A stretch of 46,733 nucleotides of DNA from a virus: the UHGV virus genome UHGV-0157529, one strand, 5' to 3'. Position 1 is the stretch's first letter. Each line of letters starts with the position of its first letter. Shown here piece after piece: positions 9,932 to 46,733 of the stretch. The notes beneath the pieces were generated by a model. The model saw nothing but the letters and a program-made list of their open reading frames with translations. It was not told the DNA's origin and ran no database searches. Position numbers and translations under genes: made by a program.

Positions 9932-9948
9932 AAGATGGAGAACAAAAG

Positions 9949-12565: not shown

Positions 12566-12679
12566 ATGTTTATCGAAGCACTGAGCAAAATGAATAAATA
12601 CTCCGCCCGCCGCGTCTGTCTGGTGTATGTCCCGGCAGTGTTCTGGATAGCCGCTGCTGTCGCCCTATATCTCGCATAG
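12566..12679 (+). CDS. small hydrophobic peptide (37 aa)
   Basis: GGAG SD about 7 nt upstream. A truncated duplicate of its 3' end lies at 13040-13075. Confidence 0.3.
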   Translation: MFIEALSKMNKYSARRVCLVYVPAVFWIAAAVALYLA

Positions 12680-12687
12680 CAAAATAC

Positions 12688-12716
12688 TTGACGGGCCCCC
12701 CAACTTATGGTATAAT
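12688..12716 (+). promoter_or_regulatory. sigma70-type promoter cassette P7 (TTGACG-17-TGgTATAAT) plus hairpin and leader GGAGATACAGAGATG
   Basis: About 90% identical over roughly 100 bp to cassette P8. Confidence 0.7.
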
Positions 12717-12759
12717 AAACATATAGGGGCAAGGGGCCCCTCCCAGCGGAGATACAGAG

Positions 12760-13002: not shown

Positions 13003-13082
13003 CCATCATACCCCACCAGCGCGGGGCCAATAAGTAGGTGCAAAGTCACCGCTGTGGCCCTGTATCTCGTATAACAAAATAC

Positions 13083-13111
13083 TTGACAGGCCCCCCAACT
13101 TATGGTATAAT
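13083..13111 (+). promoter_or_regulatory. sigma70-type promoter cassette P8 (TTGACA-17-TGgTATAAT) plus hairpin and leader GGAGATTAGAGACATG
   Basis: Near-duplicate of P7. Confidence 0.75.
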
Positions 13112-13155
13112 AAACATATAGAGGCAAGGGGCCTCTCCCAGCGGAGATTAGAGAC

Positions 13156-14074: not shown

Positions 14075-14239
14075 TGTACTGGAAGCTGGAGAATATCCGG
14101 CGAATCACCTGAGTGGACCCCTCCCCCGTAAAGGTTCGGGGTCCGGTGCAGAGCAACCCGCCATTGTATTTGACCACACCCTCATTGTTCTTACAAGCTC
14201 CTCGTGCTTAAATGTTTAGACCAAAGAGGAGCAACCCAC

Positions 14240-14845
14240 ATGGCTAAATCACCAAAGACAATTGACCTCGACTCACCGAAGGGCCATTCCAATCCGGGCA
14301 AAGGACTGGGGCTGGTGGGCAAGGACCCTATTCGATTCAACCCGCTAGCAGTACAGTTCGATATCGAGGACCACGAGGTCGAGTTCGTAGACGCGTTGTA
14401 CGCCGACCCATATAAGAACGCCACCGCTGCGTGGATGCTGCTTCACCCGGCGTGCGACTCCTATCTGTCGGCCAAAGTAAAAGCATCTGAGATGCTCAAG
14501 AAGCCGAACGTACAGAAGTACGCTGAGTATGTGGCCACCGAGCGCGTCAAGCCGACTATGGTATCCCGCGAGTTCGTCATGCTGCGCCTGCGCCACGTGG
14601 CCGAGCGTGCCATGAGCGCGGTTCCTGTGTTCGATAAGGACGGCCAGCCCACTGGCGAATACAAGTCCGACTTCGGAGCGGCTAACAAGGCGCTGGAACT
14701 GCTGGGCAAACAAATGGGCATGTTCAAAGAACAGACTGAGCTCAAGATTAAGGGCGACCGCCCGACCCTTAACGTACAGATTCTCGGGCTGCCGGACCAA
14801 TCTGAGTGTCCGACGGTCATTAACGACCATCTCAAAAAGGAGTGA
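14240..14845 (+). CDS. terS: terminase small subunit
   Basis: GAGGAG lies 9 nt upstream. Resembles the Terminase_2-type small subunit. Sits immediately upstream of the lysis and terL block. Confidence 0.65.
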   Translation: MAKSPKTIDLDSPKGHSNPGKGLGLVGKDPIRFNPLAVQFDIEDHEVEFVDALYADPYKNATAAWMLLHPACDSYLSAKVKASEMLKKPNVQKYAEYVATERVKPTMVSREFVMLRLRHVAERAMSAVPVFDKDGQPTGEYKSDFGAANKALELLGKQMGMFKEQTELKIKGDRPTLNVQILGLPDQSECPTVINDHLKKE

Positions 14846-20436: not shown

Positions 20437-21228
20437 ATGAAAAAAGCAACCCGTATCATGCCACTCATGGCGTTCTTCCCGACGCTGGCTGGTGTAGCAA
20501 CCGCCAAGCTCAAGAAGACCGTCACTAATCTGACCGAAGTGCCGGAAGCCTACCGCTCGTTGTACGAGCAGGACGGGTCCGAATACACACTGACCGTCGA
20601 GATCGAGGGGCAGGTGGATGAAACCTCGCTGGAAACCATGCGCCGTGCGCGTGACCACGAGAAGAACGCCGCGAAGGACCTGCGCCAGAAGATTTCCGAC
20701 CTTGAACTGCAGCTGTCGGACCTGCAGAACGACAAGCACCGTGGCAAGGGCGGACCGGATGTAGAAGCGCTCGAAGCGTCTTACAAAAAGCAGATTGCCG
20801 ACCTCAAGGCCGAGCATGAAGGTGCTGTTAAGAAGCTAAAGAGCAGCATCACTAACTTGACAGTGGGGCAGGCTTCTGCTAAGCTGGCAGCAGATTTATT
20901 CACCGTTCCATCCGCGATGGCCCATCACGTGACCTCTCGCCTCTCGGCGGAGATTGACGAAGATGGCAAGACAGTGACACGGGTGCTGGATAAGGATGGG
21001 AACGTGTCGGCCATGACGCTGGAGGACCTCGAAAAAGAGTTCCGCGCAGTGAAAGAATGGGCCCCGTTCCTCAAAGCTAAGGGTGGTTCCGGGATGGGCG
21101 GCCACAAAGGCCCAGGCGGTCAGACCGTTGTCTATACTCGTGACAACGCGAAGGACATGCCGGAGGCCGAACGTGCGCAGCTCCTGAGAGACGACCCTGA
21201 GCAGTTTAAACGACTTTTCGGCCAATAA
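20437..21228 (+). CDS. scaffolding protein (alternative starts at 20383 or 20458)
   Basis: CAGGAG SD 8 nt upstream. Coiled-coil, charged protein between the morphogenesis and capsid genes. Confidence 0.55.
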   Translation: MKKATRIMPLMAFFPTLAGVATAKLKKTVTNLTEVPEAYRSLYEQDGSEYTLTVEIEGQVDETSLETMRRARDHEKNAAKDLRQKISDLELQLSDLQNDKHRGKGGPDVEALEASYKKQIADLKAEHEGAVKKLKSSITNLTVGQASAKLAADLFTVPSAMAHHVTSRLSAEIDEDGKTVTRVLDKDGNVSAMTLEDLEKEFRAVKEWAPFLKAKGGSGMGGHKGPGGQTVVYTRDNAKDMPEAERAQLLRDDPEQFKRLFGQ

Positions 21229-29953: not shown

Positions 29954-32203
29954 ATGCCAGCAGCCGTCATAGCGGGGGCCGTCGCACTTGGTGCATCGGC
30001 AGCAGCAGTAGCGGGCATATTACCTCTAACTGCAGCGCTGGTTATTTCCACTGCAGCCACCGTAGCGGGTGCCCTCCTAACCAAGACCGATGTACCATCG
30101 CTAACCGGATACCAATCACAGGCCGAAAGAAAGCAAGTGCTGAGGTCATCCAGTGCCCCCAAGGTCTACATATATGGCAGGACAAAAGTGTCCGGCCTGA
30201 TGTTTTTTGCCGAAGAACAATCTGGGGACCAAGTGGATGGCGAGTGGCTGCATCTAGCCATAGCGGTCTGCGCCCACAAGGTACATAACATAGCTGCGGT
30301 ATATCTGGGTGATGATGACATCAGCACTTACGGCGAATATGCCCAGTATCAGGTGCACAACGATTCGACCGATGTGTCGGATATGTTATCCAGAGCACCG
30401 TCATGGAAGCCAGACATGGTAGGCCGTGGCCTCTGTTGGGTTCGTATATCGCTCAAGTTTAATCAGGAAAAATTCCCATCTGGTCTCCCGAATGTGTCGT
30501 TCCTTGTGGATGGTAAAGAGGTATATGACCCACGCAGTGGGGCGACCGTCTATAGTAACAACGCCGCTCTGTGTATCCTCGATTTCTACAGGTCCTATCT
30601 GGGCGTACCGGACTCCGAGCTGCTGATGGACGAATTCATCGAAGCCGCCAATATCTGCGAAGAGAGCATAAACGGAAACGACTACTCCGAGCCGCGTTAT
30701 ACCATCAATGGGTCGTATGATGCCTCCGAAGCGGTGTCGTCCACCCTTGACGACCTACACCTGAGCTGTGCTGGTGAGCCAACATATATTGGCGGGAAAC
30801 ACGGCCTGCTAGTCGGGGCTTATTACGGTCCGGCTAACCTCACCCTCGATGAGAGTCAGATAATCGACGACATCAAGATAGTGCCGGAAACGTCATGGTC
30901 TGAAAGGACCAACGTGGTGAACGGCACGTTCATCGACCCGGAGCAGGGGTATACGGAGGTAGACTTCCCGCCAGTCATCGTGGAGTCGTATATACTGGAA
31001 GATGGGAACGAGTTTACCGATGATATCAAATATCGCTTCGTCACCTCCGAATATCAGGCCCAGAGGCTGGCGCAGATAACCATAAACCGCAAGCGGCTGG
31101 GCAGGACCATCGAAATCCCACTGAACTTCCATGGGTATCAATACCGTCCGGGTAGATATGTCAACGTCAACATACCCAGCCTAGGCATCAACATGCAGGA
31201 ATTCCGCGTCACTAAATGGTCCATATCGCCTAGCGGTGAGGGATGTACTGTGACGGTCAGACAGGAGAACTCCGACGTATGGGGTGATGCGGTTGGGCAG
31301 CCTATCGACAGACCGGACCTGACCAACCTACCGGGCCCATCCGTGCCAGCGCCTACCAACCTAAACTGGTTCCCGGTCGCTTCGAACGCCGAGGTGAACT
31401 ATCAGGGCGTGCTGTCGTGGACTAACCCCACAGATGTAGACTTTACGCAGGTCATCATTCAGGGGGATGGCAAGACCATTGTATCCATGCAATCGTCTGA
31501 GACGTCCATTCGCGTGAACGGTCTGGACCGTGGCATTATGTACACCGCGTACTTGCGCAACTCTGCGAAAGGTGGTATACTGTCGAACATAAGCACCCTG
31601 CAGTTTAGTCTGGCCATCGATTCTAAATATTACGGCGATATCTACGCCATGAATGGGTGGTTTAGGGGCACAGTGTATGCCAACAATATAGTCGGTGATG
31701 TGTACAACAAGATGTCGGGTGGCATACCATATGTCAATGTGTCCGACATCACTGGTGGCGGATTCCCGTGGGCATCGAGCGCTGGTGAGCACGTGATTTG
31801 GTCCATACCGGGGGAGGAGTTCGACAGGACGATGGACTCCAACCTGTACTTGACGTTGACATCCTCTGAAAGGCAATATTTCACCGTACTGATGAGAGCA
31901 CCGGGGCTGCCAGACCAACAGGTGGCGTACATCGATACGGGTAACGACGGGTCGAACTCACCTGCGGTGGTCCAGCTTAACGGGGTGACTGTTCCGGCAA
32001 CTGATAGGGATACCCCGTGTCAGTTAGTATGCGTAGTAGGGACTAATCGGTCGTCGGGGGCGTCGTTCTACACCCCACTGGCGATGCAAACAGTAAAGGC
32101 TGATAGCGGCTCCGGAGCTATGGAGCTTGTGGGTAGGGTGGTTAGAGAAGTACCGTGGGTGGCCTTATATAAAAAAGGTCGCACTCCTGTAATACCTGCG
32201 TAA
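29954..32203 (+). CDS. central tail fibre / host specificity protein (gpJ-like) with a hydrophobic Ala-rich N-terminus
   Basis: 749 aa. The N-terminus resembles a gpI-like hydrophobic tail, followed by a J-like region (KVYIYGRTKVSGLMFFAEEQSGDQ). Confidence 0.65.
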   Translation: MPAAVIAGAVALGASAAAVAGILPLTAALVISTAATVAGALLTKTDVPSLTGYQSQAERKQVLRSSSAPKVYIYGRTKVSGLMFFAEEQSGDQVDGEWLHLAIAVCAHKVHNIAAVYLGDDDISTYGEYAQYQVHNDSTDVSDMLSRAPSWKPDMVGRGLCWVRISLKFNQEKFPSGLPNVSFLVDGKEVYDPRSGATVYSNNAALCILDFYRSYLGVPDSELLMDEFIEAANICEESINGNDYSEPRYTINGSYDASEAVSSTLDDLHLSCAGEPTYIGGKHGLLVGAYYGPANLTLDESQIIDDIKIVPETSWSERTNVVNGTFIDPEQGYTEVDFPPVIVESYILEDGNEFTDDIKYRFVTSEYQAQRLAQITINRKRLGRTIEIPLNFHGYQYRPGRYVNVNIPSLGINMQEFRVTKWSISPSGEGCTVTVRQENSDVWGDAVGQPIDRPDLTNLPGPSVPAPTNLNWFPVASNAEVNYQGVLSWTNPTDVDFTQVIIQGDGKTIVSMQSSETSIRVNGLDRGIMYTAYLRNSAKGGILSNISTLQFSLAIDSKYYGDIYAMNGWFRGTVYANNIVGDVYNKMSGGIPYVNVSDITGGGFPWASSAGEHVIWSIPGEEFDRTMDSNLYLTLTSSERQYFTVLMRAPGLPDQQVAYIDTGNDGSNSPAVVQLNGVTVPATDRDTPCQLVCVVGTNRSSGASFYTPLAMQTVKADSGSGAMELVGRVVREVPWVALYKKGRTPVIPA

Positions 32204-32212
32204 GGATGATAT

Positions 32213-34441
32213 ATGACCGTCATAAGTGGTGTTTTAGTAAACGGGTTTGGCCAACCTATGGCCAACACCCAAATGAGGGCCGTGGCTGCCGAAACGGGAA
32301 CTGCTATTGTAGGGGCCCCCGCTTATGCCAGAACGGACAATAACGGGGCTTATTCTTTTCCCCTAGAAGTCGGTGTGTACTCATTTAGTATATGGTTTGG
32401 CCACCTAGAATGGCAGTATGTGGGGGACATACAGATATTAGAGGGGACCCCGGATTCATCACTCGACCAGCTTCTTGTGATATCTCCGAACACTAAGCCG
32501 ATGGTGCTGGCGAGAGTTTTACAAGCATTGCTGGATGCGGAGGCGGCGGCGGCGAATGCGGCGAATGCCGCCAATCAGGCCGCCGAAGAAGTTAGAGATT
32601 CCCTTACTCCTTTGGGTCTACAATACAAGGATGAGGCGTCAGCCCAAGCAGCCGTAACCGCTGGCGCTATCTCCGATGGGGCCTTTTTCTACGTGAGAAG
32701 TCAGGACAGCTACTCTTTGGCTGATGAGTACCGGAACGTTGGAGGAACGGTCAGCAAGACTGGTAGGCAGATTAACAGCAAGGAATACGTGACGCTAGTC
32801 CAAGAACAGGTGAAATCTGTGGACTCCCGCACAGACGGCCTTAAAACCGTGAAACTGGTAGACGATGTTCTGTTCTTTCTAGCGAAAAACGGGCCGGTTG
32901 TGAGCGTCGACAGTACAGGGCTAGTTCGGGCAATCGAACTAATCGTTCAGAAGCTGAAAGCGGATGATTTCGAGGTCCTGAACTTTCTAGCCACGATTAT
33001 CAAGGCGCAACAGCTTGAAATTGGTGGAAGCACATTATCATCCAGTGCGTTTCCCCTATCCGTAGATGCAAACAACGGCAGCGTTTTGGTTTTAGATGGA
33101 ACCGGTCGGCTGCTGGGTATCGAGCTGGACTTTGAGCAGATTAGGCTTAATGGCGTCGATATTCTGGACATCATTAACGGCCTGACGCCCGCTGAGGTTA
33201 AACGGCTCAAAATGAAGTTCATCACCGGATATAGCCACTTCGCGTTCTATGGGCAATCGCAGGTAATAGGGACCAGTAACGGGACCATCCATTCCACATC
33301 ATTTGACCCGGACAGCCTGATGCTATATGGCGGGTTAAAGTCGTTTGGTACACCGGGATATAACACCTCCGTGCCGGAGTCCGAATACAATAAAGCGCTG
33401 CGCCCAATGTATGAGGTAAACGGCGAGTCATATTGTTCAGGGATGGCCATCACCGCACGTCAATATATCAGTGGTAAGTACCCGAACCGTGATGTAAAAA
33501 ACATCTACACGGTCAACGGCACTGGTGGGTCAACTGTTGATATGCTCAAAAAGGGAACCTCGTCCTACAACCGAATGATTACGCAGCACGTCGCCCTCAT
33601 TAACCTACTAAGCAGCATGGGTGAGGCATACCACTTTCCTGCGTTTGGTTGGTCGCAAGGCGGTAGTGATGATAATGCTGGCACTAACCCCGATGTGTGG
33701 GAGGCAGCAGTAGACAAACTACGCGCGGACTACAACGCTGACATCTTCGCCCAGACAGGCGTGAAAATTGATCCGGCATGGATAACCAATCAAATCAACA
33801 ACTACATGCGTTACCCGGCTTTGAACGGAAAACCGAATATCGGTCTGCGTCAGTATAAGATGGTCACGAACGGTGAAGGAAAATACTTCGGCTCGTGTCC
33901 GACCTATATCTGTGACTTTATTGACGTCGCGCACTGGACAAAAGAGTCTCAGGTAAAGGTTGGGGCATATTTCGAAAAGACGCGGCGCTTCATTCTGGAA
34001 GAAGGGTACTGGGAGCCTGTACACCCTATCCGCATCACTACTGCAGGGAAATTCAGCACAGTGCAGTTTCATCTTCCGCAGAACCGTCCTCTGCAATTCA
34101 ACACCGTGTTCGTTGCCGAAGCCACGAACTACGGGTTCAGCGCCGCGCAAGCTGATGGTACACCTATCGCCATCGATCGCGTTCGACTCGTTTCCGACGA
34201 CACAATTGAGGTTCGATATACCGATGTCCCTCTACCGGGAGCGGTGCTGATGTATGGCCAGACAGGGCAAGTCGGTGATCCTAACGCGTCGGATGGCTCC
34301 GGGTTAGGCCGTACTAACGGTATGCGCGGAAATCTCTGTGATACAGCCGGAGACGACGAAAAGATTTATATTTCAGCTAGTGAACCCGAATATCCGCTGC
34401 ATAACTGGTGCTGGATGTTCACAGAAGACATGGGGGTATAA
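32213..34441 (+). CDS. tail fibre / tailspike protein with a possible SASA/SGNH-type carbohydrate esterase domain
   Basis: 742 aa. FAFYGQSQVIGTSNG resembles the GQSN motif of sialate-O-acetylesterase-like (SASA) domains. GC content is lower than in the neighbouring genes. Confidence 0.55.
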   Translation: MTVISGVLVNGFGQPMANTQMRAVAAETGTAIVGAPAYARTDNNGAYSFPLEVGVYSFSIWFGHLEWQYVGDIQILEGTPDSSLDQLLVISPNTKPMVLARVLQALLDAEAAAANAANAANQAAEEVRDSLTPLGLQYKDEASAQAAVTAGAISDGAFFYVRSQDSYSLADEYRNVGGTVSKTGRQINSKEYVTLVQEQVKSVDSRTDGLKTVKLVDDVLFFLAKNGPVVSVDSTGLVRAIELIVQKLKADDFEVLNFLATIIKAQQLEIGGSTLSSSAFPLSVDANNGSVLVLDGTGRLLGIELDFEQIRLNGVDILDIINGLTPAEVKRLKMKFITGYSHFAFYGQSQVIGTSNGTIHSTSFDPDSLMLYGGLKSFGTPGYNTSVPESEYNKALRPMYEVNGESYCSGMAITARQYISGKYPNRDVKNIYTVNGTGGSTVDMLKKGTSSYNRMITQHVALINLLSSMGEAYHFPAFGWSQGGSDDNAGTNPDVWEAAVDKLRADYNADIFAQTGVKIDPAWITNQINNYMRYPALNGKPNIGLRQYKMVTNGEGKYFGSCPTYICDFIDVAHWTKESQVKVGAYFEKTRRFILEEGYWEPVHPIRITTAGKFSTVQFHLPQNRPLQFNTVFVAEATNYGFSAAQADGTPIAIDRVRLVSDDTIEVRYTDVPLPGAVLMYGQTGQVGDPNASDGSGLGRTNGMRGNLCDTAGDDEKIYISASEPEYPLHNWCWMFTEDMGV

Positions 34442-34442
34442 A

Positions 34443-35231
34443 ATGAGCGGACTGGGGCTAAAATTAAATTTTAATTCAACGCGTATATTGCCTAATATTG
34501 AACTAAAGCATGTAAAGCAATCTGATATGACCTATCTGGGAGTATATGGGGGAACAACGGAGGATACAGTTCTTAATAGATCTAAGGGGGATTTGGTAAC
34601 TCCCACAGTCGGGCAAACAACTCAAAACTGGGTACTTGGGGATAATTACTTATCTTCATCTGCAGACAATCTGTCTGCAGGGATTATTTCTACCGGGCAG
34701 CCTAAGCAACTAGACTGTACATTATTCTCCGTTTTTAATTTACAAGATATCCCTAATACTCCGGGGGTTCTATCTAGTGTAGGTATCCTATCCCTATGGG
34801 GGAATAGTCCAAACCTATCAGGGAATCCAGGACGATTGTCTTTATCTGCAATAATTACAGCCGAGGGGGACAGGTATATTGGAGTACGCTGGGGAACAAA
34901 TGCGGATGTTCCTGCACTATCTTGTGCTGTTCCCTTTGATTGGCGTGGTTTAAGTGAGCCTATTTATGCGATATGCTCAAGAAAGGATTCGGGGGTGCTA
35001 GCTCTAGAAGTTCATTCAGGAGCCACGGTATTAAAACAGACATCTGTAGTAACACCAGTTCCTATCCCTGCAGGATCTACAAACTGGCGAATGTATTCGG
35101 GCCAGCTAAGTACATATCCCATTAGCGGATTGCGTACATACGCAGCGGCTGCTTGGAAAAGTCATTTATCTGCTGAGGAATTGTCCAGTGAATTGGAAAT
35201 TATGAAAATAAATTTATCTTCACATTTCTAA
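34443..35231 (+). CDS. distal tail fibre / receptor-binding module, low-GC
   Basis: Ser/Thr/Gly-rich, beta-type composition. Markedly AT-rich (about 42% GC). Start codon lies 1 nt after the upstream stop. Confidence 0.5.
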   Translation: MSGLGLKLNFNSTRILPNIELKHVKQSDMTYLGVYGGTTEDTVLNRSKGDLVTPTVGQTTQNWVLGDNYLSSSADNLSAGIISTGQPKQLDCTLFSVFNLQDIPNTPGVLSSVGILSLWGNSPNLSGNPGRLSLSAIITAEGDRYIGVRWGTNADVPALSCAVPFDWRGLSEPIYAICSRKDSGVLALEVHSGATVLKQTSVVTPVPIPAGSTNWRMYSGQLSTYPISGLRTYAAAAWKSHLSAEELSSELEIMKINLSSHF

Positions 35232-35384
35232 TTTAAAACTGGTTATCACTAATTATAAATAAGGCAGCTACGGGTGCAAGTGCCCTGTAAAGGATATGAT
35301 GCCGTTCGTCCTATCGACAAGGAACATCGCAGTGCCGTAGTCCGTCAAACGAGAAGTACCTCTCCGGCCCTCCGACAGGGGGGC

Positions 35385-35438
35385 CGCTACGTATATAGCC
35401 CCCGACAACTCCGATTCAACGGAGAGGCTCCCGTTTGC
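35385..35438 (+). repeat. about 50-bp repeat (TACGTATATAGC...GATTCAACGGAGAGGCTCCCGTTT), second copy of the terminator-containing element at 9878-9930
   Basis: A 24-nt perfect match GATTCAACGGAGAGGCTCCCGTTT at 9904-9927 and 35413-35436, plus flanking similarity. Confidence 0.6.
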
Positions 35439-35537
35439 TAAATGCGCATGACGGTCGGCTGCACTAAAGATTCTGTTCTGCTGTTCTCGTATCGTACGCG
35501 AGAGCCGAGGATTGTCGCCGGGCGACAGATATGATAC

Positions 35538-35640
35538 GATGGAACGGTGGAACGATGGAACGGCACAGTTCGAAGCCCCGGAGGACGCGGCACTGAGCGT
35601 TCCACTATGCGTTCCATCACCGCTGGTTTCATGGAACGGT
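35538..35640. repeat. iteron cluster B: TGGAACGG TGGAACGA TGGAACGG in tandem (35540-35563), then CGTTCCA x2 and TGGAACGG, followed by a long imperfect hairpin at 35658-35695
   Basis: Read directly. Homologous to cluster A, including the shared CTCTCTCTGTC and CCCCGGAGGACG segments. Lies 90-240 bp upstream of the primase-polymerase gene. Confidence 0.7.
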
Positions 35641-35780
35641 AGATAGATAGGACTGCCGGGGCCCCTCTCTCTGTCGATGGGCGACAGAGAGGGCCCATCC
35701 CCGCGCGTGAAAGAGGACTGGTGCCGGGCAACGTGCCGTGATATACTAACGGTGAGATATAGAGATAACGAGGACCAAAC

Positions 35781-37337
35781 GTGGAAGAGAAGAACATACT
35801 ACGATTCGCGCAGCTGTTTCGTGGGAACGAACGCTCATTCGGGCAGTTCACGCCCAACGCACCGAGTTCGCGCCACAGTATCACCGTGAAGGAGGCGTAC
35901 ACCTTCGATCATTACGTGAACCACCTCGACGGCAAGAAGGGCCTCGGTCTAGTGCCCATCATGGACGACGGATTCTGTTGGTTCGGGGCTATAGATATCG
36001 ACGCGCATGGTGACGCCGAGGATATCGACCTTATCGAGCTAGAGAGGCTGGTACGCGAACTCGACTACCCGTTGACTGTGTGCCGCTCCAAGTCAGGCGG
36101 TGCCCACCTCTACCTGTTCGGCAACGAGCCGCTCCGGGCGACTGTGGTGCGTAAGGTGCTGGCCAAATGGGCGGTGCAGCTAGGGCACGGCGGGTGCGAG
36201 ATATTCCCGAAGCAGGACGTGTTGCCCATCGAAAAGGACACGGGCGAGCAGCAACTAGGCAACTGGTTGAATTTGTGCTGGTTCGATGCCGAGAACCCCG
36301 AGTGTCTACGCTACACCGTGGAGGGCGGAAAGCAGGTAGACTTCGAGCATTTCCTCGATATCGCTGAATCACGCCGCATCACCCCGGCCATGCTGGTGGA
36401 GAAGGGCGACGGCGAGCATCAGGAGGCCCCGCCGTGCATCCAGCGCATGATAGCTGACGGCGTCGGCAAGGGCCACCGCAACGAAGCCATGTACAACATG
36501 GTCATCTACCTCAAACAGGCTTTCCCGGAGACCTACCGTGACCGGGCGTTCGACATGAATGGGCGTATCTTCACCGAGCCGATGAGCCACGCCGAAGCCA
36601 AAAAGGTCATCAACAGTGCCTCCCGTCGCGACTACCGATACAAGTGCAAGGAAGAACCCTGTAAGAGCCTGTGCCGCTCGTTCGAGTGCGTGACCCGTAA
36701 GTATGGCATCACACCGGAGGAGAAAGGCGAGCTTGAGATGGGTAAGCCGCCAGCGTTCGGACCACTGGAAAAGTACATGACCACGCCCGTGCGGTGGGTG
36801 CTGTACGTGGACGAGGTCCGGCTCAACCTGACCACCCAACAGCTGATGGACTTCAAGGCTATCCGTGAGGCCGTCGCCGACAACCTGACCCGCCTGATAC
36901 CGCCGATGAAGAACGATCGCTGGCAGGTGATATTGCATGGGCTTATGCAGGATGCCAAGTTAATCGAGGCTCCGGAGGAGGCCACACAGGAGGGCGCACT
37001 GTGGTCCCGACTGCAGAGCTTCCTTGCCAAGGCGGACCTCGATTCCAAGGGCGACGACCCCGAGGACCGCGACGCGCTCGCGTACGGGACACCAGTGGTG
37101 CAGATTAAGGACGACAGGCGTGTGGTCTACTTCCGTGGCCAAGACTTCCTCGAATACCTCAAGAAGAACCGCGCCGATGAGTTCAAGGGTTCGGCGGTAT
37201 GGGTGGCCCTCAAGCAGAAAGGGTGCGAGCACACCAAGCTACGCGTCAACAAGATGCCCCTCAATGTATGGTACGTGTCGGTCGATGACCTGACCCGTGT
37301 AGAGATTAAAGCTAAAGAAGTAAGGAGTGAATTCTGA
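35781..37337 (+). CDS. bifunctional primase-polymerase (AEP Prim-Pol domain plus PriCT-1 domain); GTG start
   Basis: IDIDAH and SKSGGAHLYLF match the AEP motifs, and GKGHRNEAMYNMVIYL matches PriCT-1. Confidence 0.8.
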   Translation: MEEKNILRFAQLFRGNERSFGQFTPNAPSSRHSITVKEAYTFDHYVNHLDGKKGLGLVPIMDDGFCWFGAIDIDAHGDAEDIDLIELERLVRELDYPLTVCRSKSGGAHLYLFGNEPLRATVVRKVLAKWAVQLGHGGCEIFPKQDVLPIEKDTGEQQLGNWLNLCWFDAENPECLRYTVEGGKQVDFEHFLDIAESRRITPAMLVEKGDGEHQEAPPCIQRMIADGVGKGHRNEAMYNMVIYLKQAFPETYRDRAFDMNGRIFTEPMSHAEAKKVINSASRRDYRYKCKEEPCKSLCRSFECVTRKYGITPEEKGELEMGKPPAFGPLEKYMTTPVRWVLYVDEVRLNLTTQQLMDFKAIREAVADNLTRLIPPMKNDRWQVILHGLMQDAKLIEAPEEATQEGALWSRLQSFLAKADLDSKGDDPEDRDALAYGTPVVQIKDDRRVVYFRGQDFLEYLKKNRADEFKGSAVWVALKQKGCEHTKLRVNKMPLNVWYVSVDDLTRVEIKAKEVRSEF

Positions 37338-39172
37338 TGTGGGACTTCGCCGTCAAACCGCGCCCCGGTGCGTACATGAATGTAACGATGAACGATAACA
37401 CCGGACGCATGCATATCGAGGCGTCCATCTCGTATAACGACCTAATCCGGGCTTTCCCTAACCGCAAGTTCGAGAAACGCCGCAGCATATGGGTAGTACC
37501 CATTATCCGCCGCAACGCCGAACACTTGCTCAACAACTGCAAGGGAAAGCCGGGCGTCAACATCGCCGAGGATGTAGAGGACCACTGCCGTCAGGTCATC
37601 GAGTCGGCCACCATCACCCGCCGTGAGGTGCTGCCTACGTGGTATGAGTTCAAAACAGAGCCGTTCCCGTTCCAGCGCGACGCGCTCGATTTCGCGTGGT
37701 CATCGCCGCTGGTGGCGTTCTTCATGGAGATGGGGACCGGGAAGTCCAAGACCCTCATCGACCTCGCCTGCGCCAGATTCAAGGCCCGGCTCATTAACGC
37801 CCTCATAGTCTACTGCCCGGTGCCGCTCCGGTCCAACTGGGTGGCCGAATTCGGCATCCATGGCTCGGTCCCGTATGAGACGTTCGTCTGCGACACGACC
37901 ATGAGCGGCTTCGAGAAGAAGGTAAAGGCGTTCAACGACGCTGACTTTGGGTATAACAAGCTTAAGGTATTCATCGTCGGCATCGAGTCATTCAGTCAGG
38001 GCATGAGTAAGGGCAAGGCGTTCGGGGCCACCATGCAATTTGCCCGATCGCATCAGGCCATGCAAGCGGTGGATGAATCCCACAAGATTAAAGGCCACGA
38101 CGCATCACGTGCTATCAACGTCGAGGTGCTGGGCCGCGAGGCCAAGTATAAGGCCATCATGTCCGGGTCTCCGGTGTCGCTAGGGCCCACCGACCTATAT
38201 CAGCAGTTCCAGTTCCTTTCCCCGGACATCATCGGTCTAGGCGACTTCTATAGTTTCCAAGCCCGGTATTGTGAGAAGGGCGGGTTCCAGAACAAGCAGA
38301 CGGTAGGGTATCAGAACATCGATGAGCTGATGGAGATAATTAAGCCGTTCGTGTTCCAAGTCAAGAAGGAAGACGTATTGACCGACCTCCCGGCCAAGAT
38401 GTTCACCAAGGTAGAGGTAGAACTTACCAAGGAGCAGAAGGACTTATACGCCCAAATCAAGAAAGAGCGCTGCGCCGACCTATCAAAACTGCTGGCCTCC
38501 CGCAACGGGGCCATTACTGAGTCGTTCATCGAGCTGGTCTGCGAGAATGTGCTGGCCGCATATACCGCCCTGCAGCAGATTTGTGCCGGGTATGTGTCCT
38601 ATTGGGAGCTTGACGACCCGGAGGACGAGAACAGCAAGCGTCACCGTGAGCGAGTGCGTGTCATCGAGCCCGAGAAGAACCCGAAGATTGCCTATCTGCT
38701 GGAGTTCATCGAGGAGAACAAGGGCCACCCGCTTATCATCTGGGCCAAGTTCCGCCCGGAGATAGCCGACATCGTGGAGGCGCTCACTGCCCGGTACGGG
38801 GAGGACATGGTCTGCCAGTATCACGGGGGTCTCAACCCGGCGGAGCGAGACGAGCAAAAGGCCAAGTTCCTCAACACCGATGCCCAGTTCTTTGTCTCCA
38901 ACCAGCAGACCGGGGGCACGGGCCTGACCCTGAACAAGGCAAGCCGCACGTTCTATATGTCTAACAGTTTCATTCTGGTGGACCGTATGCAGTCGGAAGA
39001 CCGAAACCACCGAATCGGCCAGAAAAACTCCGTTCTGTATGCTGATGTGGTGGCCAAGGGTACGGTAGACGAGACCATCCTGCAAGCCATCCGCGATAAG
39101 AAGGACCTCGCGGCATATGTGCGGGATTGTATGGAGCGCTCCCCTGCTGAACTGTTGGCGCTGTTGGGATAG
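37337..39172 (+). CDS. SF2 helicase (SNF2/DEAD-DEAH box family)
   Basis: MEMGTGKSKT (motif I), DESHKIK (motif II) and QSEDRNHRIGQ (motif VI). Confidence 0.8.
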   Translation: MWDFAVKPRPGAYMNVTMNDNTGRMHIEASISYNDLIRAFPNRKFEKRRSIWVVPIIRRNAEHLLNNCKGKPGVNIAEDVEDHCRQVIESATITRREVLPTWYEFKTEPFPFQRDALDFAWSSPLVAFFMEMGTGKSKTLIDLACARFKARLINALIVYCPVPLRSNWVAEFGIHGSVPYETFVCDTTMSGFEKKVKAFNDADFGYNKLKVFIVGIESFSQGMSKGKAFGATMQFARSHQAMQAVDESHKIKGHDASRAINVEVLGREAKYKAIMSGSPVSLGPTDLYQQFQFLSPDIIGLGDFYSFQARYCEKGGFQNKQTVGYQNIDELMEIIKPFVFQVKKEDVLTDLPAKMFTKVEVELTKEQKDLYAQIKKERCADLSKLLASRNGAITESFIELVCENVLAAYTALQQICAGYVSYWELDDPEDENSKRHRERVRVIEPEKNPKIAYLLEFIEENKGHPLIIWAKFRPEIADIVEALTARYGEDMVCQYHGGLNPAERDEQKAKFLNTDAQFFVSNQQTGGTGLTLNKASRTFYMSNSFILVDRMQSEDRNHRIGQKNSVLYADVVAKGTVDETILQAIRDKKDLAAYVRDCMERSPAELLALLG

Positions 39173-39198
39173 ACAACGGGGGCCCGGTGTGATATACT
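39170..39198 (+). promoter_or_regulatory. promoter cassette P10 (TAGACA-17-TGaTATACT). The -10 is bracketed by the GGGCCC...GGGCCC palindrome (39182-39205); leader CAGGAGATAAGAGATG.
   Basis: Same architecture as P5. Confidence 0.55.
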
Positions 39199-39225
39199 GG
39201 GCCCCTACAATACAGGAGATAAGAG

Positions 39226-39603
39226 ATGACCGATAAACAGCCTAAAGTTTTCGTCGTACAGGAAAACCCGAACCTCAACTACACACCTGCTGAGCGCTAC
39301 GGCGAGGTTGTTTTTCTGACAGCCATCGAATTCAGCCCGATGAAGAACAGCCCACGCAACGCGGCAGTGCTGGAGACCGTCGAGGCGGCAATGAAGCGTT
39401 TCGACCCGAGCAAGGACTACCTCCTGCTGTCGGGCAACCCTATCATCATGGGTTATGTGTTCCACCTCGCCATGACCAAGGCCACAGAGGTCCGTGTGCT
39501 GTGGTGGTCCCGCGATGACCGCAAATACACCGAGGTCCTGTTCAACCCGGACTTCATCAAATCGGTCGGTATCCCGGCCATCCCCGTGACATACAAAAAG
39601 TGA
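39226..39603 (+). CDS. hypothetical protein
   Basis: First gene downstream of P10. Confidence 0.55.
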   Translation: MTDKQPKVFVVQENPNLNYTPAERYGEVVFLTAIEFSPMKNSPRNAAVLETVEAAMKRFDPSKDYLLLSGNPIIMGYVFHLAMTKATEVRVLWWSRDDRKYTEVLFNPDFIKSVGIPAIPVTYKK

Positions 39604-40251: not shown

Positions 40252-40524
40252 ATGGAAAAAGCTACCAAACTGACCATCGTACTGCAGCCGACCAACGTCG
40301 AAGCGTTCAAAAACCGCTCTATCGCTGATTCCGGCGTGCTGGAACTGGCGGCTAAGGTCGTCGAAGCTGGTCAGGAGCATGGCTTTGGCACTGCGTCCGC
40401 ACCGACCATCTTTAAGGTGAACGGTGAGAAGGTGAAAGCGTACACCAATAAAGGCGGCGATGTCACTGTGGCGCTGACTGGCATTCACGCCGAGCCGCCG
40501 AAAAACGCGCCGATCGAGCTGTAA
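40252..40524 (+). CDS. hypothetical protein
   Basis: GAGG SD; 91 aa. Confidence 0.5.
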   Translation: MEKATKLTIVLQPTNVEAFKNRSIADSGVLELAAKVVEAGQEHGFGTASAPTIFKVNGEKVKAYTNKGGDVTVALTGIHAEPPKNAPIEL

Positions 40525-41464: not shown

Positions 41465-42940
41465 ATGAACCAATACGTAGCTATCTACGGACCTCCGGGT
41501 ACAGGTAAATCCACCGAGGTTATCCGCCGCTTCTCCAAACTCCTCGACGACGGCGTGGACCCGAACCGCATCGGGTTGGTTTCATTCACCAAGGCCGCAG
41601 CCAAAGAGCTGGCCAACCGCATCGGCATCGACACCCCCAACATCGCCACCATCCACAGCTACTGCTACCGACTTCTGGGCCTGACCAAGCAACAGGTCAT
41701 CGGCTGGTCACACATGAAAGAGTTCGAGAAGGTGGTGGGCATCGAAATCCGTGGCGACAACCCGGACGAAGAGGAAGAACTCTGCGAGGGTGACATCTAC
41801 CTGACCCTGTACGGACTCGCGCATGCTCGTATGACCTCATACGAGGATACCTACGATAACTCGGACCAGCCCGGCTCCCGTGACCGCTTCATCTATTTCG
41901 CACAAACCTATGACAACTGGAAAAACGCATATGGCTACGTTGACTTCTCGGATATGCTTGGCGGCGCTCTTGACGTCCCTGCTCCTCGGCTCGATTGGCT
42001 GTTCGTCGACGAAGCCCAAGACCTCTCCCCTCTACAATGGGCGGTTATTAGACATTGGTCGGGAGCTATTAACAACATCACCATCGCTGGCGACGATGAC
42101 CAAGCCATCTACGTATGGGGCGGGGCGGACCCGGACGGTATGTATCGTTTCGAGCAGGAGTATGGGGCCGAGCGCGTCGTACTCGGACAAAGTTATCGAG
42201 TGCCGCAACTAGCGCACAAGCTGGCCGAGCGTGTCATCACTCTGGTGTCATCACGTGTCGACAAAGAGTACCTGCCGCGTGACGAGGTCGGGGATATCCG
42301 CCACCACAGCGGCCCGCACTCGCTGCGGCTTGAGCACGGTGTCGACACTCTGGTGTTATACCGCAGCCACTATATGCGCAGAGAGGTTGAAGACTACCTC
42401 ATCCAGCGCAAAATCCCGTATGTCACCGATTCGGGCCGTCCGGGCCTAATGCAGGGGACCATCGCCGCCTCGTTGCGCCTCATGAAAAAGATGCGGGAGA
42501 ACATCGAGCACCTCGGCAAGCCAGCCCTGACCGACGCCGAGTTCCGCATCCTGCGCCGGAATATGACCCATCTGGCCATCGCCCACGTGGACGCGGAGAA
42601 GTGGGATAAGCTGGTGGAGCGCCGACCGTGGGACCATCTCAAGCTTGGCGGACCGTGGCTGGCCTATCTGCAAGCCATCGAGAAGAACTACGGTATGGAA
42701 GTCAAGCCGACCATCCACCTGTCCACCATCCATGGCTCAAAAGGCCGACAGGCCGAGCGGGTAGTGTTAATTAACGATGTTAGTGCTAAGACCGCCAGCA
42801 ACATGGATAACCGCGACGGCTTCGATGCCGAGATGCGTACCTTCTATGTTGGCGTCACCCGTACCAAGAACATGCTGGACATCGTCCACGGGGACAACGC
42901 CCTGCCTGTGCTGATGAAGCCCGTACATAAGGACAAATAA
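41465..42940 (+). CDS. UvrD/Rep-family SF1 DNA helicase
   Basis: GPPGTGKST (Walker A), DEAQDLSPLQ (motif II) and the UvrD-like C-terminal motifs. A 5' UTR hairpin with a GAAA tetraloop lies at 41426-41443. Confidence 0.8.
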   Translation: MNQYVAIYGPPGTGKSTEVIRRFSKLLDDGVDPNRIGLVSFTKAAAKELANRIGIDTPNIATIHSYCYRLLGLTKQQVIGWSHMKEFEKVVGIEIRGDNPDEEEELCEGDIYLTLYGLAHARMTSYEDTYDNSDQPGSRDRFIYFAQTYDNWKNAYGYVDFSDMLGGALDVPAPRLDWLFVDEAQDLSPLQWAVIRHWSGAINNITIAGDDDQAIYVWGGADPDGMYRFEQEYGAERVVLGQSYRVPQLAHKLAERVITLVSSRVDKEYLPRDEVGDIRHHSGPHSLRLEHGVDTLVLYRSHYMRREVEDYLIQRKIPYVTDSGRPGLMQGTIAASLRLMKKMRENIEHLGKPALTDAEFRILRRNMTHLAIAHVDAEKWDKLVERRPWDHLKLGGPWLAYLQAIEKNYGMEVKPTIHLSTIHGSKGRQAERVVLINDVSAKTASNMDNRDGFDAEMRTFYVGVTRTKNMLDIVHGDNALPVLMKPVHKDK

Positions 42941-42942: not shown

Positions 42943-44820
42943 ATGGCTATCTTTCCGAGATTAGAAAACTACGATGTGGTGGCTATCGATACCGAGACCA
43001 CCGGACTGGACTGGTTCCGTGGGGATAAGCCGTTCGGTGTAGCTATCGCCCTGCCTAATGGGTACAGTGAATATTACGATATCCGTAAGGACCTCGCTGC
43101 ATACCAGTGGCTCCGTGACTCGGTGCATAAGATTCGCCGCCCGGTAAACCACAACATGAAGTTCGATATCCACATGTTGCGTCAGGTGGACGTGATGGTC
43201 AACACCCGTAAGGCTGAGTGTACCCAAATCCGCGCGGCCCTCATCAACGAGCATCTGATGAGCTACAGCCTCGACGCTCTGGCCAAGAAATACCTCAAGG
43301 CCGAGAAGGTCGACGACATCTATGAGGAGCTGGCCAAGCTGTTCGGCGGCCCGGCCACTCGTAAGGCCCAAGCCCCGAACTTCCATCGTGCGCCCGAGTC
43401 CATGATGCGCCGCTATGCCAAGGTCGATGCCGAGTTAGCCCTGCAGCTATGGCAGTGGCAGGAGGAGGAAATCGCCCGTCAGGACCTCGGCGAGGTGTGG
43501 CGTCTTGAGATGCGCCTGCAGCCGCATGTCATCGAGTCAGAACGCGTAGGCATCAGGGTAGACGAGGAGCTGGCGAAGAAGCGTATCAGCGACCTCACCA
43601 AAATCGTGGACCAGACCAGAAAGGAAATCAACCGACTGGCTGGATTCGAGGTCAACCCAAACCCATCGGGGTCCATCAAAAAGCTGTTCGAGCCGTACAA
43701 AGAGGGTGATCAGTGGTATGCCAAGGATGGGACCCCAATCGACACGACCGACGCCGGACAGCCGTCGCTGGGGGCCGATGCCCTCAAGCGCATCAAGCAC
43801 CCAGCAGCTGGCCTTATTCTTAAGTGCCGCAAGATGATAAAGACCCGTGATACCTTTATCTCTGGCCACGTGTTGGGTAATATCGTAAATGGGTACGTGC
43901 ACCCGAACATCAACCAGACCAAGGGCGAGGTAGGCGGGGACAATTCCGGGACCGAGGGTACTGGCACTGGCCGCCTGTCGTATACACGCCCGGCCTTACA
44001 GCAAATCCCGTCACGCGACAAGGAGGTGGCAGCGCTGGTGCGGCCAATCTTCCTGCCCGATGAGGGCCAGCTGTGGACCTACGGCGACCTCGACCAGCAC
44101 GAATTCAGGATATTCGCCCACTACGCGAACCCGAAGAGCCTAATCGAAGCGTACGCCGCAAATCCGGACCTCGACATGCACCAAATCGTGGCCGACATGA
44201 CTGGGATGCCGCGCTCGGCCCCGGCATCGGGCGGTGCGAACGCCAAGCAAATCAACCTCGCTATGGTGTTTAACATGGGCGGTGGTGAGCTGGCGTCCCA
44301 AATGGGCCTCCCATATACATGGGAATCCGCAGTGTTCAAGGACGAGAACGAGGAGCGCCGATTCAAGAAGGCCGGAGAAGAGGCACTCGCGGTCATGGAG
44401 ACTTACTACCGGGCAGTACCGGGTGTGCGTGAGGTGGCTCGCCGGGCCGGGTCGCTGGCGAAGTCCCGAGGATACGTGAAGACCATGTACGGGCGCAAGA
44501 TACGCTTCCCCGGCGGCAAATTCACGTACAAGGCGTCCGGTCTGGTGTATCAGGGTACGGCTGCCGACTTCAACAAGCGCAACATCTGCGAGATAGCGGA
44601 GTATATCGAGTCCGAGTGCCCGCATAACCGCTTCCTCCTCAACATCCACGACGAATATAGTATGTCGATGATGGATGAGGGCGACATCACAGTGAAGCAC
44701 CTGCGCGAGATGAAGCGATTAGTGCAGGACAAGGGTCTGCGGGTCCCTATCCGCATCGACTTTGGGGGACTGGCCCCGAATTGGTGGGAAGCGACCAAGA
44801 TGGACGTCATCACCAAATGA
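42943..44820 (+). CDS. family A DNA polymerase with a 3'-5' exonuclease domain (DpoZ candidate if the genome carries Z-base)
   Basis: Exo I motif AIDTETTGL, motif A DLDQHEFRIFAHY, motif B ANAKQINLAMVFNMGGG, motif C NIHDE. Confidence 0.85.
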   Translation: MAIFPRLENYDVVAIDTETTGLDWFRGDKPFGVAIALPNGYSEYYDIRKDLAAYQWLRDSVHKIRRPVNHNMKFDIHMLRQVDVMVNTRKAECTQIRAALINEHLMSYSLDALAKKYLKAEKVDDIYEELAKLFGGPATRKAQAPNFHRAPESMMRRYAKVDAELALQLWQWQEEEIARQDLGEVWRLEMRLQPHVIESERVGIRVDEELAKKRISDLTKIVDQTRKEINRLAGFEVNPNPSGSIKKLFEPYKEGDQWYAKDGTPIDTTDAGQPSLGADALKRIKHPAAGLILKCRKMIKTRDTFISGHVLGNIVNGYVHPNINQTKGEVGGDNSGTEGTGTGRLSYTRPALQQIPSRDKEVAALVRPIFLPDEGQLWTYGDLDQHEFRIFAHYANPKSLIEAYAANPDLDMHQIVADMTGMPRSAPASGGANAKQINLAMVFNMGGGELASQMGLPYTWESAVFKDENEERRFKKAGEEALAVMETYYRAVPGVREVARRAGSLAKSRGYVKTMYGRKIRFPGGKFTYKASGLVYQGTAADFNKRNICEIAEYIESECPHNRFLLNIHDEYSMSMMDEGDITVKHLREMKRLVQDKGLRVPIRIDFGGLAPNWWEATKMDVITK

Positions 44821-45275: not shown

Positions 45276-46448
45276 ATGAAAGACATTAAGAGCAACCGCC
45301 CGGTAGTAACAGCACCGAAAGCAACCATCGTCGTTGACGCCCAGTTCGGCAGCACCGGTAAGGGCCTCATCGCTGGGTATCTGGCAGAACGCGACCAGCC
45401 CGATGTAGTGATGACCGCATGGAGCGCAAACGCTGGCCACACCTACATCGATGCGAATGGCCGTAAATTCGTGCATTGCATGCTGGCCAACGGCATCGTA
45501 TCGCCGAATCTCGAAACCGTCCTCATCGGGCCGGGGTCACAGATGGATTGGTCGCTGCTGCTGCGCGAAATCGAGTCCTGCGCAGACCTGCTGGCGGGTA
45601 AGAGCATTTTTGTCCACATGAACGCGGCTATTATCACTGATGCCCATCGTGCCGAAGAGCAGGGCCCGATGACCAAAATCGGTTCGACCAAGAAAGGCTG
45701 TGGTGCGGCCATGATTGCCAAAATCCGCCGCAACCCGGATGACCAGAACACAGCGGGGGCGATGCGCTCTGACCTGCTGGCCGAATGGCGCAAGATGCAA
45801 TGTGCTAACCCAGACCTGCAGGTCGTGGAACTGGGTATTGTATCAAACGCCGAATACCTAGATATGGTCTACCGCGCCCGCCGCATTCAGGTAGAAGGCG
45901 CACAGGGTTTCAGCCTCGGCATCAACAACGGCTTTTATCCGTATGTGACCTCTCGTGAGTGCACCCCCGCGCAGGTCTGCGTAGACGTGAACCTGCCGCT
46001 GGCCTTCGTGGATAAAGTAGTAGCCACCATGCGTACCTACCCAATCCGCGTAGCCAACCGCTACAACGACAAGGGCGAGCAAATCGGCTGGTCCGGCCCG
46101 TGCTACCCTGACCAGAAAGAGCTGGACTGGAAGGCCGACCTCGGAATGGAAGCAGAGCTTACTACCGTGACCAAGCTCCCGCGTCGCATCTTTACGTTCT
46201 CCTACGAGCAGACCAAGGCTGCGCTGAGCGTCATCCGTCCGGACGAGGTGTTCCTCAACTTCTGCAACTATATGGAACCGGACGAAGTGGCTGAGGTGGT
46301 GGGCACCATCGAGCGTGCAGCGCATGAGCTGAAAATCCCCGGCCCTATGCCACTGGCCCGTTACTACGGCTATGGCCCGACTGTGACTGATATCTACACC
46401 GAAATGCAGGTACAAGAGCCTGAATTCGGCGGCAACATCAGCGAATAA
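45276..46448 (+). CDS. purZ: adenylosuccinate synthetase-family enzyme with Asp replaced by Ser in the P-loop; candidate PurZ (N6-succino-2-amino-2'-deoxyadenylate synthase)
   Basis: FGSTGKG aligns with PurA QWGDEGKGK (Asp to Ser). SANAGHT aligns with GGHNAGHT. 390 aa, a short archaeal-like PurA length. Flanked by PolA, MazG and HD genes. Confidence 0.6.
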   Translation: MKDIKSNRPVVTAPKATIVVDAQFGSTGKGLIAGYLAERDQPDVVMTAWSANAGHTYIDANGRKFVHCMLANGIVSPNLETVLIGPGSQMDWSLLLREIESCADLLAGKSIFVHMNAAIITDAHRAEEQGPMTKIGSTKKGCGAAMIAKIRRNPDDQNTAGAMRSDLLAEWRKMQCANPDLQVVELGIVSNAEYLDMVYRARRIQVEGAQGFSLGINNGFYPYVTSRECTPAQVCVDVNLPLAFVDKVVATMRTYPIRVANRYNDKGEQIGWSGPCYPDQKELDWKADLGMEAELTTVTKLPRRIFTFSYEQTKAALSVIRPDEVFLNFCNYMEPDEVAEVVGTIERAAHELKIPGPMPLARYYGYGPTVTDIYTEMQVQEPEFGGNISE

Positions 46449-46460: not shown

Positions 46461-46733
46461 ATGACCGGAATCAAGTTTGACCAAGGCAAGGCCCCGCTTA
46501 GTCTGATTGACCCGCGTTTCACCGAGGAGGTGGCGCGGGTTCTGGCTATCGGGGAACAGAAATACGGACGAGCGAACTGGCAAGGACTCAAAGTGGAGCG
46601 CCTGCTAGACGCCGTAAAAAGACACACACTTGAATTAGAGAAGAGCAACGACCATGACGACGAAACTGGACTCCACCACGCAGCACACGCCGCCTCCGGA
46701 CTTATGTTCATCTTCTGGCTCCTCAACAACCGA
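46461..46733 (+). CDS. dATP/dGTP diphosphohydrolase N-terminal-domain protein, 3'-partial. The ORF runs off the window end in frame with the ORF entering at nt 1.
   Basis: KFDQGKAPLSLIDPRFTEEVARVLAIGEQKYGRANW...GLHHAAHAASGLMF resembles the dGTP_diPhyd_N family. There is no stop before the window end. 273 nt equals 91 complete codons. Confidence 0.55.
   Translation, partial: MTGIKFDQGKAPLSLIDPRFTEEVARVLAIGEQKYGRANWQGLKVERLLDAVKRHTLELEKSNDHDDETGLHHAAHAASGLMFIFWLLNNR

Follow-up and report, generated by a model that had tools for sequence, protein, structure and literature searches.

An iteron-type repeat module upstream of the primase gene of a 2-aminoadenine phage, a candidate replication origin

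Where does DNA replication start in a phage that is equipped to replace adenine with 2-aminoadenine (Z), and which protein recognizes the site? The enzymes that make or incorporate 2-aminoadenine (PurZ, DatZ, MazZ, DpoZ) have been intensively studied, and none of the papers found on 2-aminoadenine phages gives an account of the replication start site or its mechanism. The question is raised by the virus genome UHGV-0157529, the 46,733-bp stretch of DNA analyzed here (the window), in which the region 35232-35780 carries a cluster of short repeats, termed cluster B, and is followed by a gene for a primase of the AEP type (35781-37337). Cluster B is read here, with moderate confidence and from sequence comparison, as an iteron-type origin or an initiator-binding module that is probably bound by the primase. 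Since a MazZ-like dATP/dGTP pyrophosphohydrolase is encoded by a single intact frame that leaves the window at its right end (46461-46733) and continues at its left end (1-612), the 46,733 bp are taken to be a genome that is complete and either circular or circularly permuted. All of its genes are oriented on the plus strand.

The word TGGAACG is present in 24 copies in the window, both strands counted, against 6.96 +/- 2.89 in shuffled sequences, and none of 100 shuffles reached 24. Fourteen of these copies fall into two patches, six at 35540-35638 (cluster B) and eight at 11133-11362 (cluster A), and the two 300-bp segments of the genome that are densest in the GGAAC core coincide with the same two regions, which are separated by 52% of the circle; no repeat cluster other than these was seen in the genome. 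The repeats that a preliminary description of this DNA had reported at 35540-35563, together with inverted CGTTCCA copies and a further direct copy, were all read in the sequence. The same description regarded 35232-35780 as non-coding, which agrees with the lack of a conserved open reading frame and with the single-base insertions and deletions in the alignment with four relatives; homology to these relatives begins only at 35337, while the tail genes end at 35231.

The closest relatives of the phage are Klebsiella phages K21lambda1 and VLCpiS6a, "Pseudomonas" phage PSA28 and Salmonella phage PMBT28, and farther ones are Providencia phage Kokobel2 and the Acinetobacter SH-Ab 15497 group. Among five close genomes, 41 of the 42 repeat columns of cluster B are invariant, compared with 138 of the 232 other positions of the element (Fisher p ~1e-7), and in cluster A the corresponding numbers are 55 of 56 and 236 of 332 (p ~1e-6). 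The alignments thus show the iteron motif (consensus TGGAACG, degenerate form YRGAACR) to be under strong purifying selection. Origins of the iteron type are generically marked by at least three copies of a short motif, placed in non-coding DNA and conserved above background, and such sites number six in cluster B and at least eight in cluster A. To judge from sequence, the repeats are genuine, selectively conserved iterons of the protein-binding type. Readings of the motifs as DnaA box, LexA, CRP or sigma-54 sites were rejected on spacing or sequence.

What is the iteron array composed of? From left to right, the following features were found:

35344-35442, plus strand: terminator-like structured element, ending in CCCGTTTGCTAAA, that closes the tail-gene operon and bounds the module on the left
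35473-35488, minus strand: two degenerate inverted iterons, CTGTTCTG and CTGTTCTC, 8 bp apart (CGTTCTG CCGTTCC in relatives)
35488-35504: left boundary box CGTATCGTACGCGAGAG, a partial complement of the right box
35513-35527: dyad 1, TGTCGCCGGGCGACA (TGTC-N7-GACA), without a change in close relatives, its sequence being retained in other lineages as well
35540-35563, plus strand: three direct iterons, TGGAACGG TGGAACGA TGGAACGG, with a period of 8 bp
35576-35590: GC-rich spacer CCCCGGAGGACGCGG, with a second occurrence in cluster A at 11192
35598-35604 and 35610-35616, minus strand: two inverted iterons CGTTCCA, 12 bp apart
35632-35639, plus strand: single direct iteron TGGAACGG, forming with the preceding inverted copy the dyad CGTTCCAT-N13-ATGGAACG
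35640-35653: AT-richer patch TAGATAGATAGGAC, invariant in close relatives
35659-35696: imperfect hairpin with the core dyad 2, TGTCGATGGGCGACA (35672-35686)
35702-35717: right boundary box CGCGCGTGAAAGAGGA, directly before the promoter (consensus in the family, CRCGYGYGAAAAGAG)
35719-35747, plus strand: primase promoter of the phage's sigma-70-type family, with a weak -35 (TGGTGC) and an extended -10 (TGATATACT, 35739-35747)

The element is considered to start near 35470, because the degenerate inverted repeats, in which the variants CAGAACAG and GAGAACAG occur, and dyad 1 belong to it. The boundary boxes of Kokobel2 form an 18/18 inverted repeat, 193 nt apart. Dyads of the TGTC-N7-GACA form are found three times in the whole window (0.57 expected), all of them within clusters A and B. 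The AT-richer patch is a candidate melting or priming site, and other lineages have analogous patches after their last iteron. The primase promoter was detected by a family-specific pattern only, a strict consensus scan for promoters and terminators over 34800-36200 having given no promoter above threshold; in relatives its -35 is TAGACA or TTGACG. An equivalent of the terminator-like element, with the ending CCCGTTTkmYAAAG, precedes the module in all relatives read. This element of about 100 nt has a second copy at 9838-9933 (76% identical overall and 97% over the last 31 nt), and its RNA fold of -40.7 kcal/mol (z -2.9) is closed by a long-range stem, CAAACG/CGUUUG; a complex terminator and a 3′ RNA element are both possible readings.

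Does the hairpin at 35659-35696 belong to the conserved part of the module? The long hairpin of the preliminary description is present, with stems GGGCCC/GGGCCC and TCTCTGTCG/CGACAGAGA and a DNA fold of -16.7 kcal/mol (z -3.1), but as a stable structure it is not conserved beyond its own lineage. In K21lambda1, PSA28 and VLCpiS6a just a 7-bp core (TCTGTCG/CGACAGA) pairs, the 15-bp stem being specific to the window genome; the region of PMBT28 folds no better than shuffles (z -0.8), and z ranges from -1.6 to +1.6 in nine other elements, from related lineages and from cluster A. The conserved part is the GTC-N7-GAC dyad, and since the dyad is conserved and the stable stem is not, the hairpin core is read as a protein-binding dyad. 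A conserved single-strand initiation signal at this place was rejected, given that the nine other elements lack a stable fold. The sequence said to be common to the hairpin and cluster A, CTCTCTCTGTC, was indeed found at 11182 and 35665.

Cluster A (11043-11398) aligns with cluster B over the full length, and the alignment also takes in both clusters of Kokobel2 and both of SH-Ab 15497. By this alignment, one composite module is present in two paralogous copies, clusters A and B, built from the same parts in slightly changed order, with a palindrome, a second inverted pair and two TGTTCC variants as extras of cluster A:

11080-11092: box
11105-11119: dyad TGTCGCCCGTCGACA
11133-11156: three direct iterons
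11157-11170: AT-richer patch
11190-11202: GTC-N7-GAC
11218-11234: second box
11236-11254: inverted pair
11272-11278: direct iteron
11335-11346: palindrome GGGAACGTTCCC
11349-11362: second inverted pair
11377-11396: two TGTTCC variants
11423-11451: consensus promoter, 25 bp after the end of the cluster

At the left end of cluster A (11043-11093) there is a promoter-like TTGACA-N18-TATCAC with two TATCACG words 16 bp apart, which is invariant in five phages; TATCAC is also the tandem repeat that replaces TGGAAC upstream of the primase of L095, one of the related lineages listed below. In the Klebsiella/Salmonella group, cluster A is followed by a gene (11724-12434), the first conserved one on its downstream side, for a DUF2786/DUF7168 protein whose residues 163-214 give a weak Alba-like (Rpp20) match. 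Kokobel2 has no gene of similar size after its cluster A, and in SH-Ab 15497 the small-terminase gene follows directly.

The same layout was found upstream of the orthologous primase in every closer relative read: a dyad, two to three direct repeats with an 8-9-bp period, a GC spacer, inverted repeat(s), direct repeat(s), an AT-richer patch, a box and a promoter. The repeat word itself varies (L numbers are our handles for related sequences):

Kokobel2: TGGAACC
SH-Ab 15497: (G)AGCAACC
L093: CCAGAAC(G/A)
L094: TGGAAC(G/A)
L095: TATCAC, with a 9-bp period
L096: TGTAACG, primase 83% identical
L097: CCGGAAC mixed with ATGGAAC
L098: GGTAAC
L015: TGGAAC(A/G), primase of 44% identity
L102 and L103, AT-rich contigs: TGTAAC and TGTAAT, primase of 36-38% identity

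In SH-Ab 15497 its own repeat gives 18 matches (5.4 expected), with clusters at 20960-21067 and 43040-43243, and in Kokobel2 the corresponding number is 22 (5.9 expected), with clusters at 14182-14304 and 39186-39264. For the three complete genomes, the distance between the two clusters amounts to 52, 51 and 54.5% of the circle, and each pair shares the repeat of its own genome. A word that is present in many copies, with one consensus per genome at both loci and different consensuses between lineages, is what one expects if a co-evolving phage protein reads the sites, and neither RNA helices nor a host-factor site would leave such a signature. The sequence of the dyads stays the same from one lineage to the next, suggesting that another and more conserved protein binds there. 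Cluster A of SH-Ab 15497 has a reversed orientation with respect to the genes, and this argues for a site acting at the level of DNA, independently of the direction of transcription.

These data bear directly on the possibility that the repeats are helix arms of a structured RNA or of a single-stranded DNA element. It draws on the complementarity (G-U allowed) of the degenerate repeats at 35473-35488 to the repeats of the 35540-35563 triple, and on the long-range inverted repeat that brackets the module. Yet the copies at the two loci all carry a single motif that changes in concert from lineage to lineage, which would not be expected of helices. Direct copies are more numerous than inverted ones, the orientation with respect to transcription is reversed in SH-Ab 15497, the hairpin lacks conservation, and no Rfam match was obtained at gathering score or at E up to 1, so that a structured element of this kind is regarded as very improbable.

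Which protein could read the iterons? The primase gene (35781-37337, plus strand, GTG start) codes for an AEP domain (residues ~1-200), a PriCT-1-like helical part (~202-286) and a winged-helix C-terminal region (312-518); the mean pLDDT of the whole primase model is 84.6. The AEP domain matches Pfam AEP-TOTE (1.5e-12), and the folds nearest to it are CAPP Prim-Pol (Foldseek E 2e-10) and the S-2L PrimPol. The PriCT-1 match is weak in the window primase (E 0.038), while 27 of 29 family members match. Between the PriCT-1-like and winged-helix parts, four cysteines (C289/C294/C298/C303, encoded at 36645-36689 and spaced C-x4-C-x3-C-x4-C) are shared without exception by 29 homologues, and a zinc site is their probable function. 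Among the solved folds closest to the modeled C-terminal region are an oriT-binding protein and the Rep initiator of a staphylococcal island (SaPI); a profile search with the C-terminal sequence against PDB gave no significant match. The primase has no helicase or P-loop domain. The preliminary description placed two helicases after a Prim-Pol/PriCT gene, and the AEP primase is as described, but only the SNF2-type helicase (37337-39172) is directly next, the UvrD-type helicase (41465-42940) lying four small genes beyond it.

The primase, through the modeled region of residues 312-518, is put forward as the best candidate iteron binder, because it is the only identified protein with a suitable fold and the only constant neighbor gene of the array, a linkage that holds down to 36% primase identity. 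No helix-turn-helix or other known DNA-binding regulator was detected by Pfam and PHROG scans of 40 open reading frames. Among positions conserved in TGGAAC lineages, those changed in L093 (CAGAAC) make up 3 of 109 in residues 1-200 and 24 of 177 in residues 201-518. Two other ideas were tried and rejected. A 90-amino-acid protein (40252-40524) diverges most with repeat type, but it is fast-evolving and lacks recognizable DNA-binding features. Primase patch 482-487 tracked the repeat in some lineages, but predictions made from it failed or were approximate, L096 having TGTAACG instead of TGGAAC and L098 GGTAAC instead of TATCAC.

Beside the primase and the MazZ-like enzyme, the phage encodes SSB, the UvrD-type and SNF2-type helicases, three proteins resembling Pam3 gp32/33/34 and the following:

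45276-46448: PurZ-type adenylosuccinate-synthetase homologue
609-1211: HD phosphohydrolase (DatZ-like)
42943-44820: family-A polymerase with 3′-5′ exonuclease

The predicted 2-aminoadenine gene set is thus full, and because of it every A of the iterons and promoters would presumably be Z in virion DNA.

How could such a module work? Cluster B may be a nucleoprotein assembly site that acts in cis to the primase gene, and it is most likely an origin of a virulent, circularly permuted siphovirus with a Z genome. A phage-encoded sequence-specific protein, for which the winged-helix C-terminal region of the primase is the best candidate, would bind the iterons, and a second, more conserved dimeric factor would occupy the two TGTC-N7-GACA dyads that flank them. 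The bound complex would distort or open the adjacent AT-richer patch, the first primer would be laid by the AEP domain, and the family-A polymerase, SSB and the SNF2- and UvrD-type helicases encoded downstream would then take over. Iteron occupancy would also feed back on primase-helicase expression, as in iteron plasmids, and such autoregulation is likely since the array abuts the primase promoter. More speculatively, cluster A might be a second origin, or a bound site that stalls forks and aids the switch to concatemers, comparable to oriR of phage SPP1. The origin reading is favored because there are many sites in two orientations, an ancient link to the primase 5′ end, two copies per genome and indifference to orientation, and because the neighboring gene product is a primase with a winged-helix region. 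It had been proposed in the preliminary description, and it is still the best reading of the conserved iterons, the pairing of clusters, the primase linkage and the winged-helix region, although origin activity itself is something that we infer.

The main rival to the origin is a purely regulatory role, in which a phage DNA-binding protein or the autoregulating primase would control the downstream promoters from these arrays and have no part in initiation. Each cluster ends 0-45 bp from a sigma-70-type promoter (35719-35747 for primase-SNF2 and 11423-11451 for an early operon), the last two repeats of cluster A are 25-45 bp upstream of the -35, likewise in Kokobel2, and the poor -35 of the window primase promoter could need an activator. 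This role is nevertheless judged rather unlikely, being weakened by the finding that only 2 of ~11 family promoters have arrays (those of replication genes at 39170, 40165 and 44835 are without them) and by cluster A of SH-Ab 15497, which is flipped and ~230 bp from the next promoter. Moreover, 6-14 sites over 200-350 bp far exceed the needs of an operator, no regulator-type protein was detected among the open reading frames scanned, and Kokobel2 and SH-Ab 15497 retain the array despite good -35 elements.

Pairs of same-repeat clusters about half a circle apart in three genomes also bring to mind a fork barrier, a pairing (handcuffing) site or a recombination hotspot at one or both clusters, which would serve control of copy number or concatemers while initiation takes place elsewhere; a role of this sort was proposed for SPP1 oriR (PMC3485210, PMC6316719). 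It is improbable here, as it leaves unexplained the attachment of cluster B to the primase 5′ end, kept down to 36% identity, and as no other candidate origin is visible in a genome without further repeat clusters.

Packaging (pac, bound by the small terminase) and partition (parS-like) were also considered. Short-repeat arrays are typical of pac and centromere sites, and in three genomes the small-terminase gene is preceded by cluster A at a distance of 0.3-3 kb. The preliminary description had left room for both functions, and neither fared well: a pac phage needs one site and two are present, some 21 kb separate cluster B from the terminase genes, and the scan of 40 open reading frames gave no ParA/ParB-like domain. 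The related PMBT28 is a virulent, pac-type phage without lysogeny genes (PMC6025938), and a pac or partition site is accordingly considered hardly probable.

Several observations nevertheless weigh against an origin at cluster B bound by the primase. GC and AT skew are monotonic, with no inflection at either cluster, an absence of origin signal that is explained by coding being all on one strand. There is no long AT-rich unwinding element, just the 14-nt patch at 35640-35653, though AT-richness might not reduce stability if the DNA carries 2-aminoadenine. No replicative hexameric helicase or loader was recognizable in the phage, and no upstream repeat cluster was seen for ~140 distant primase homologues (~30% identity, mostly marine, from metagenome and IMG/VR scans). 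Because both clusters stand directly upstream of sigma-70 promoters, their position fits a purely regulatory role equally well. In a weak covariation test, the lineage-specific divergence of the primase was the lowest among replication proteins, not the highest, and L096, with its TGTAACG repeat, has zero conserved C-terminal positions that differ from the TGGAAC group. Finally, a contig from another sample that is probably from the L093 phage (L179) carries for the most part TGGAACG in its cluster A, in contrast to the CAGAAC of the L093 cluster B; recognition may therefore be degenerate, with the first two bases loose (YRGAACR), rather than switched.

The underlying iteron principle is textbook, and one may ask if the element belongs to any described system. 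Functionally it resembles ori/crr of satellite phage P4, oriL/oriR of SPP1, the origins of SaPI and SCCmec and the iteron plasmids, and it is a member of none of them, because the primase is AEP and not Toprim and has no helicase, the repeat and its 8-bp phasing are different, and no homology to gp38 or to a plasmid Rep was detected. In P4, ori and crr are separated clusters of octamer-scale iterons in both orientations, bound by the alpha protein, which combines a Toprim-type primase, an SF3 helicase and a winged-helix C-terminal domain in one chain. The P4 analogy drawn in the preliminary description is a fair functional comparison, given two separated clusters of the same iteron, one of them by a replication gene, and a candidate binder that is a primase with a winged-helix C-terminal region. 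It is not the P4 system, however: the window protein combines AEP with PriCT-1 and has no fused helicase, and the repeat is TGGAACG, whereas that of P4 is TGTTCACC.

In SPP1, one phage protein (G38P/gp38) binds oriL and oriR, and the second site was proposed to stall forks and trigger concatemer synthesis (PMC6316719, PMC3485210). SPP1 is similar in being a virulent pac-type siphovirus of ~45 kb with two similarly organized repeat-bearing origins, one at the initiator gene. It differs in that gp38 is a replisome organizer that loads a DnaB-type helicase, that host primase and polymerases are used, and that oriL lies inside gene 38 with a clear AT-rich unwinding element; homology between the proteins was not detected. 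The C-terminal domain of SaPI Rep was reported to bind iterons beside its gene (PMC7581432). In pri-rep-ori of SaPI and Cch/Cch2 of SCCmec, however, the binder is a self-loading helicase and the origin is downstream of its gene, whereas in the window the array precedes the gene and the corresponding domain is part of an AEP primase that has no helicase. The resemblance to the SaPI/PICI (phage-inducible chromosomal island) type is limited to the C-terminal fold, which is like that of SaPI Rep.

Rep proteins of the iteron plasmids pPS10, F, P1, R6K and RK2 read iterons by winged helices, with possible pairing between iteron sets (PMC4980987). The likeness extends to direct repeats for initiation, inverted ones near the rep promoter for autoregulation and the ori-rep cassette; in contrast, plasmid iterons are 17-22 bp long and helically phased, those described here are 7-8 bp with an 8-bp period, DnaA boxes were not found, and the candidate initiator is a primase. 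Like oriV of the IncQ plasmid RSF1010, the module has iterons followed by GC-/AT-rich segments and a hairpin. Unlike there, the hairpin is not conserved as a stable structure and there is no opposed pair of single-strand initiation (ssi) sites, and IncQ divides the tasks between RepC, which binds the iterons, and the primase RepB′, which primes the ssiA/ssiB hairpins.

The remaining observations concern the genome as a whole. The near-consensus sigma-70 promoter family (TTGAC-N17-TGnTATAAT, with CCCCAAC in the spacer) is found at these positions:

1940, 3239, 5205, 9431, 11423, 12688, 13083, 39170, 40165 and 44835: sigma-70 family promoters

Each of them is followed by a GC-rich hairpin, often with a shared leader GGAGATAGAGAGATG ahead of the start codon, and two of them lie in a 110-nt duplication (12644-12753 and 13039-13148). 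The tail-fiber region 29954-35336 is unrelated to relatives that are otherwise 85-95% identical, its GC content falls to 0.47-0.53, and similarity restarts exactly at 35337, just ahead of the terminator-like element; the pattern suggests that a host-range module was exchanged, with the junction at the border of the non-coding DNA. The "Pseudomonas" wastewater record of PSA28 (L003 / MZ089737) is ~91% identical to the Klebsiella phages over the compared region (98% in the primase), and its host label may be unreliable. A tRNA scan gave no match.

Characterized 2-aminoadenine phages of the literature include PMBT28 and SH-Ab 15497, and for phages of this kind the element is a concrete, conserved and clonable candidate origin, the first handle on their replication initiation. 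It comes with a candidate initiator for which natural specificity variants exist (TGGAACG, TGTAACG, AGCAACC and others). If the reading is true, an AEP primase with a winged-helix reader would join the short list of primases that recognize their own origin, and the module would offer a minimal replicon for Z-DNA replication systems in vitro or in E. coli.

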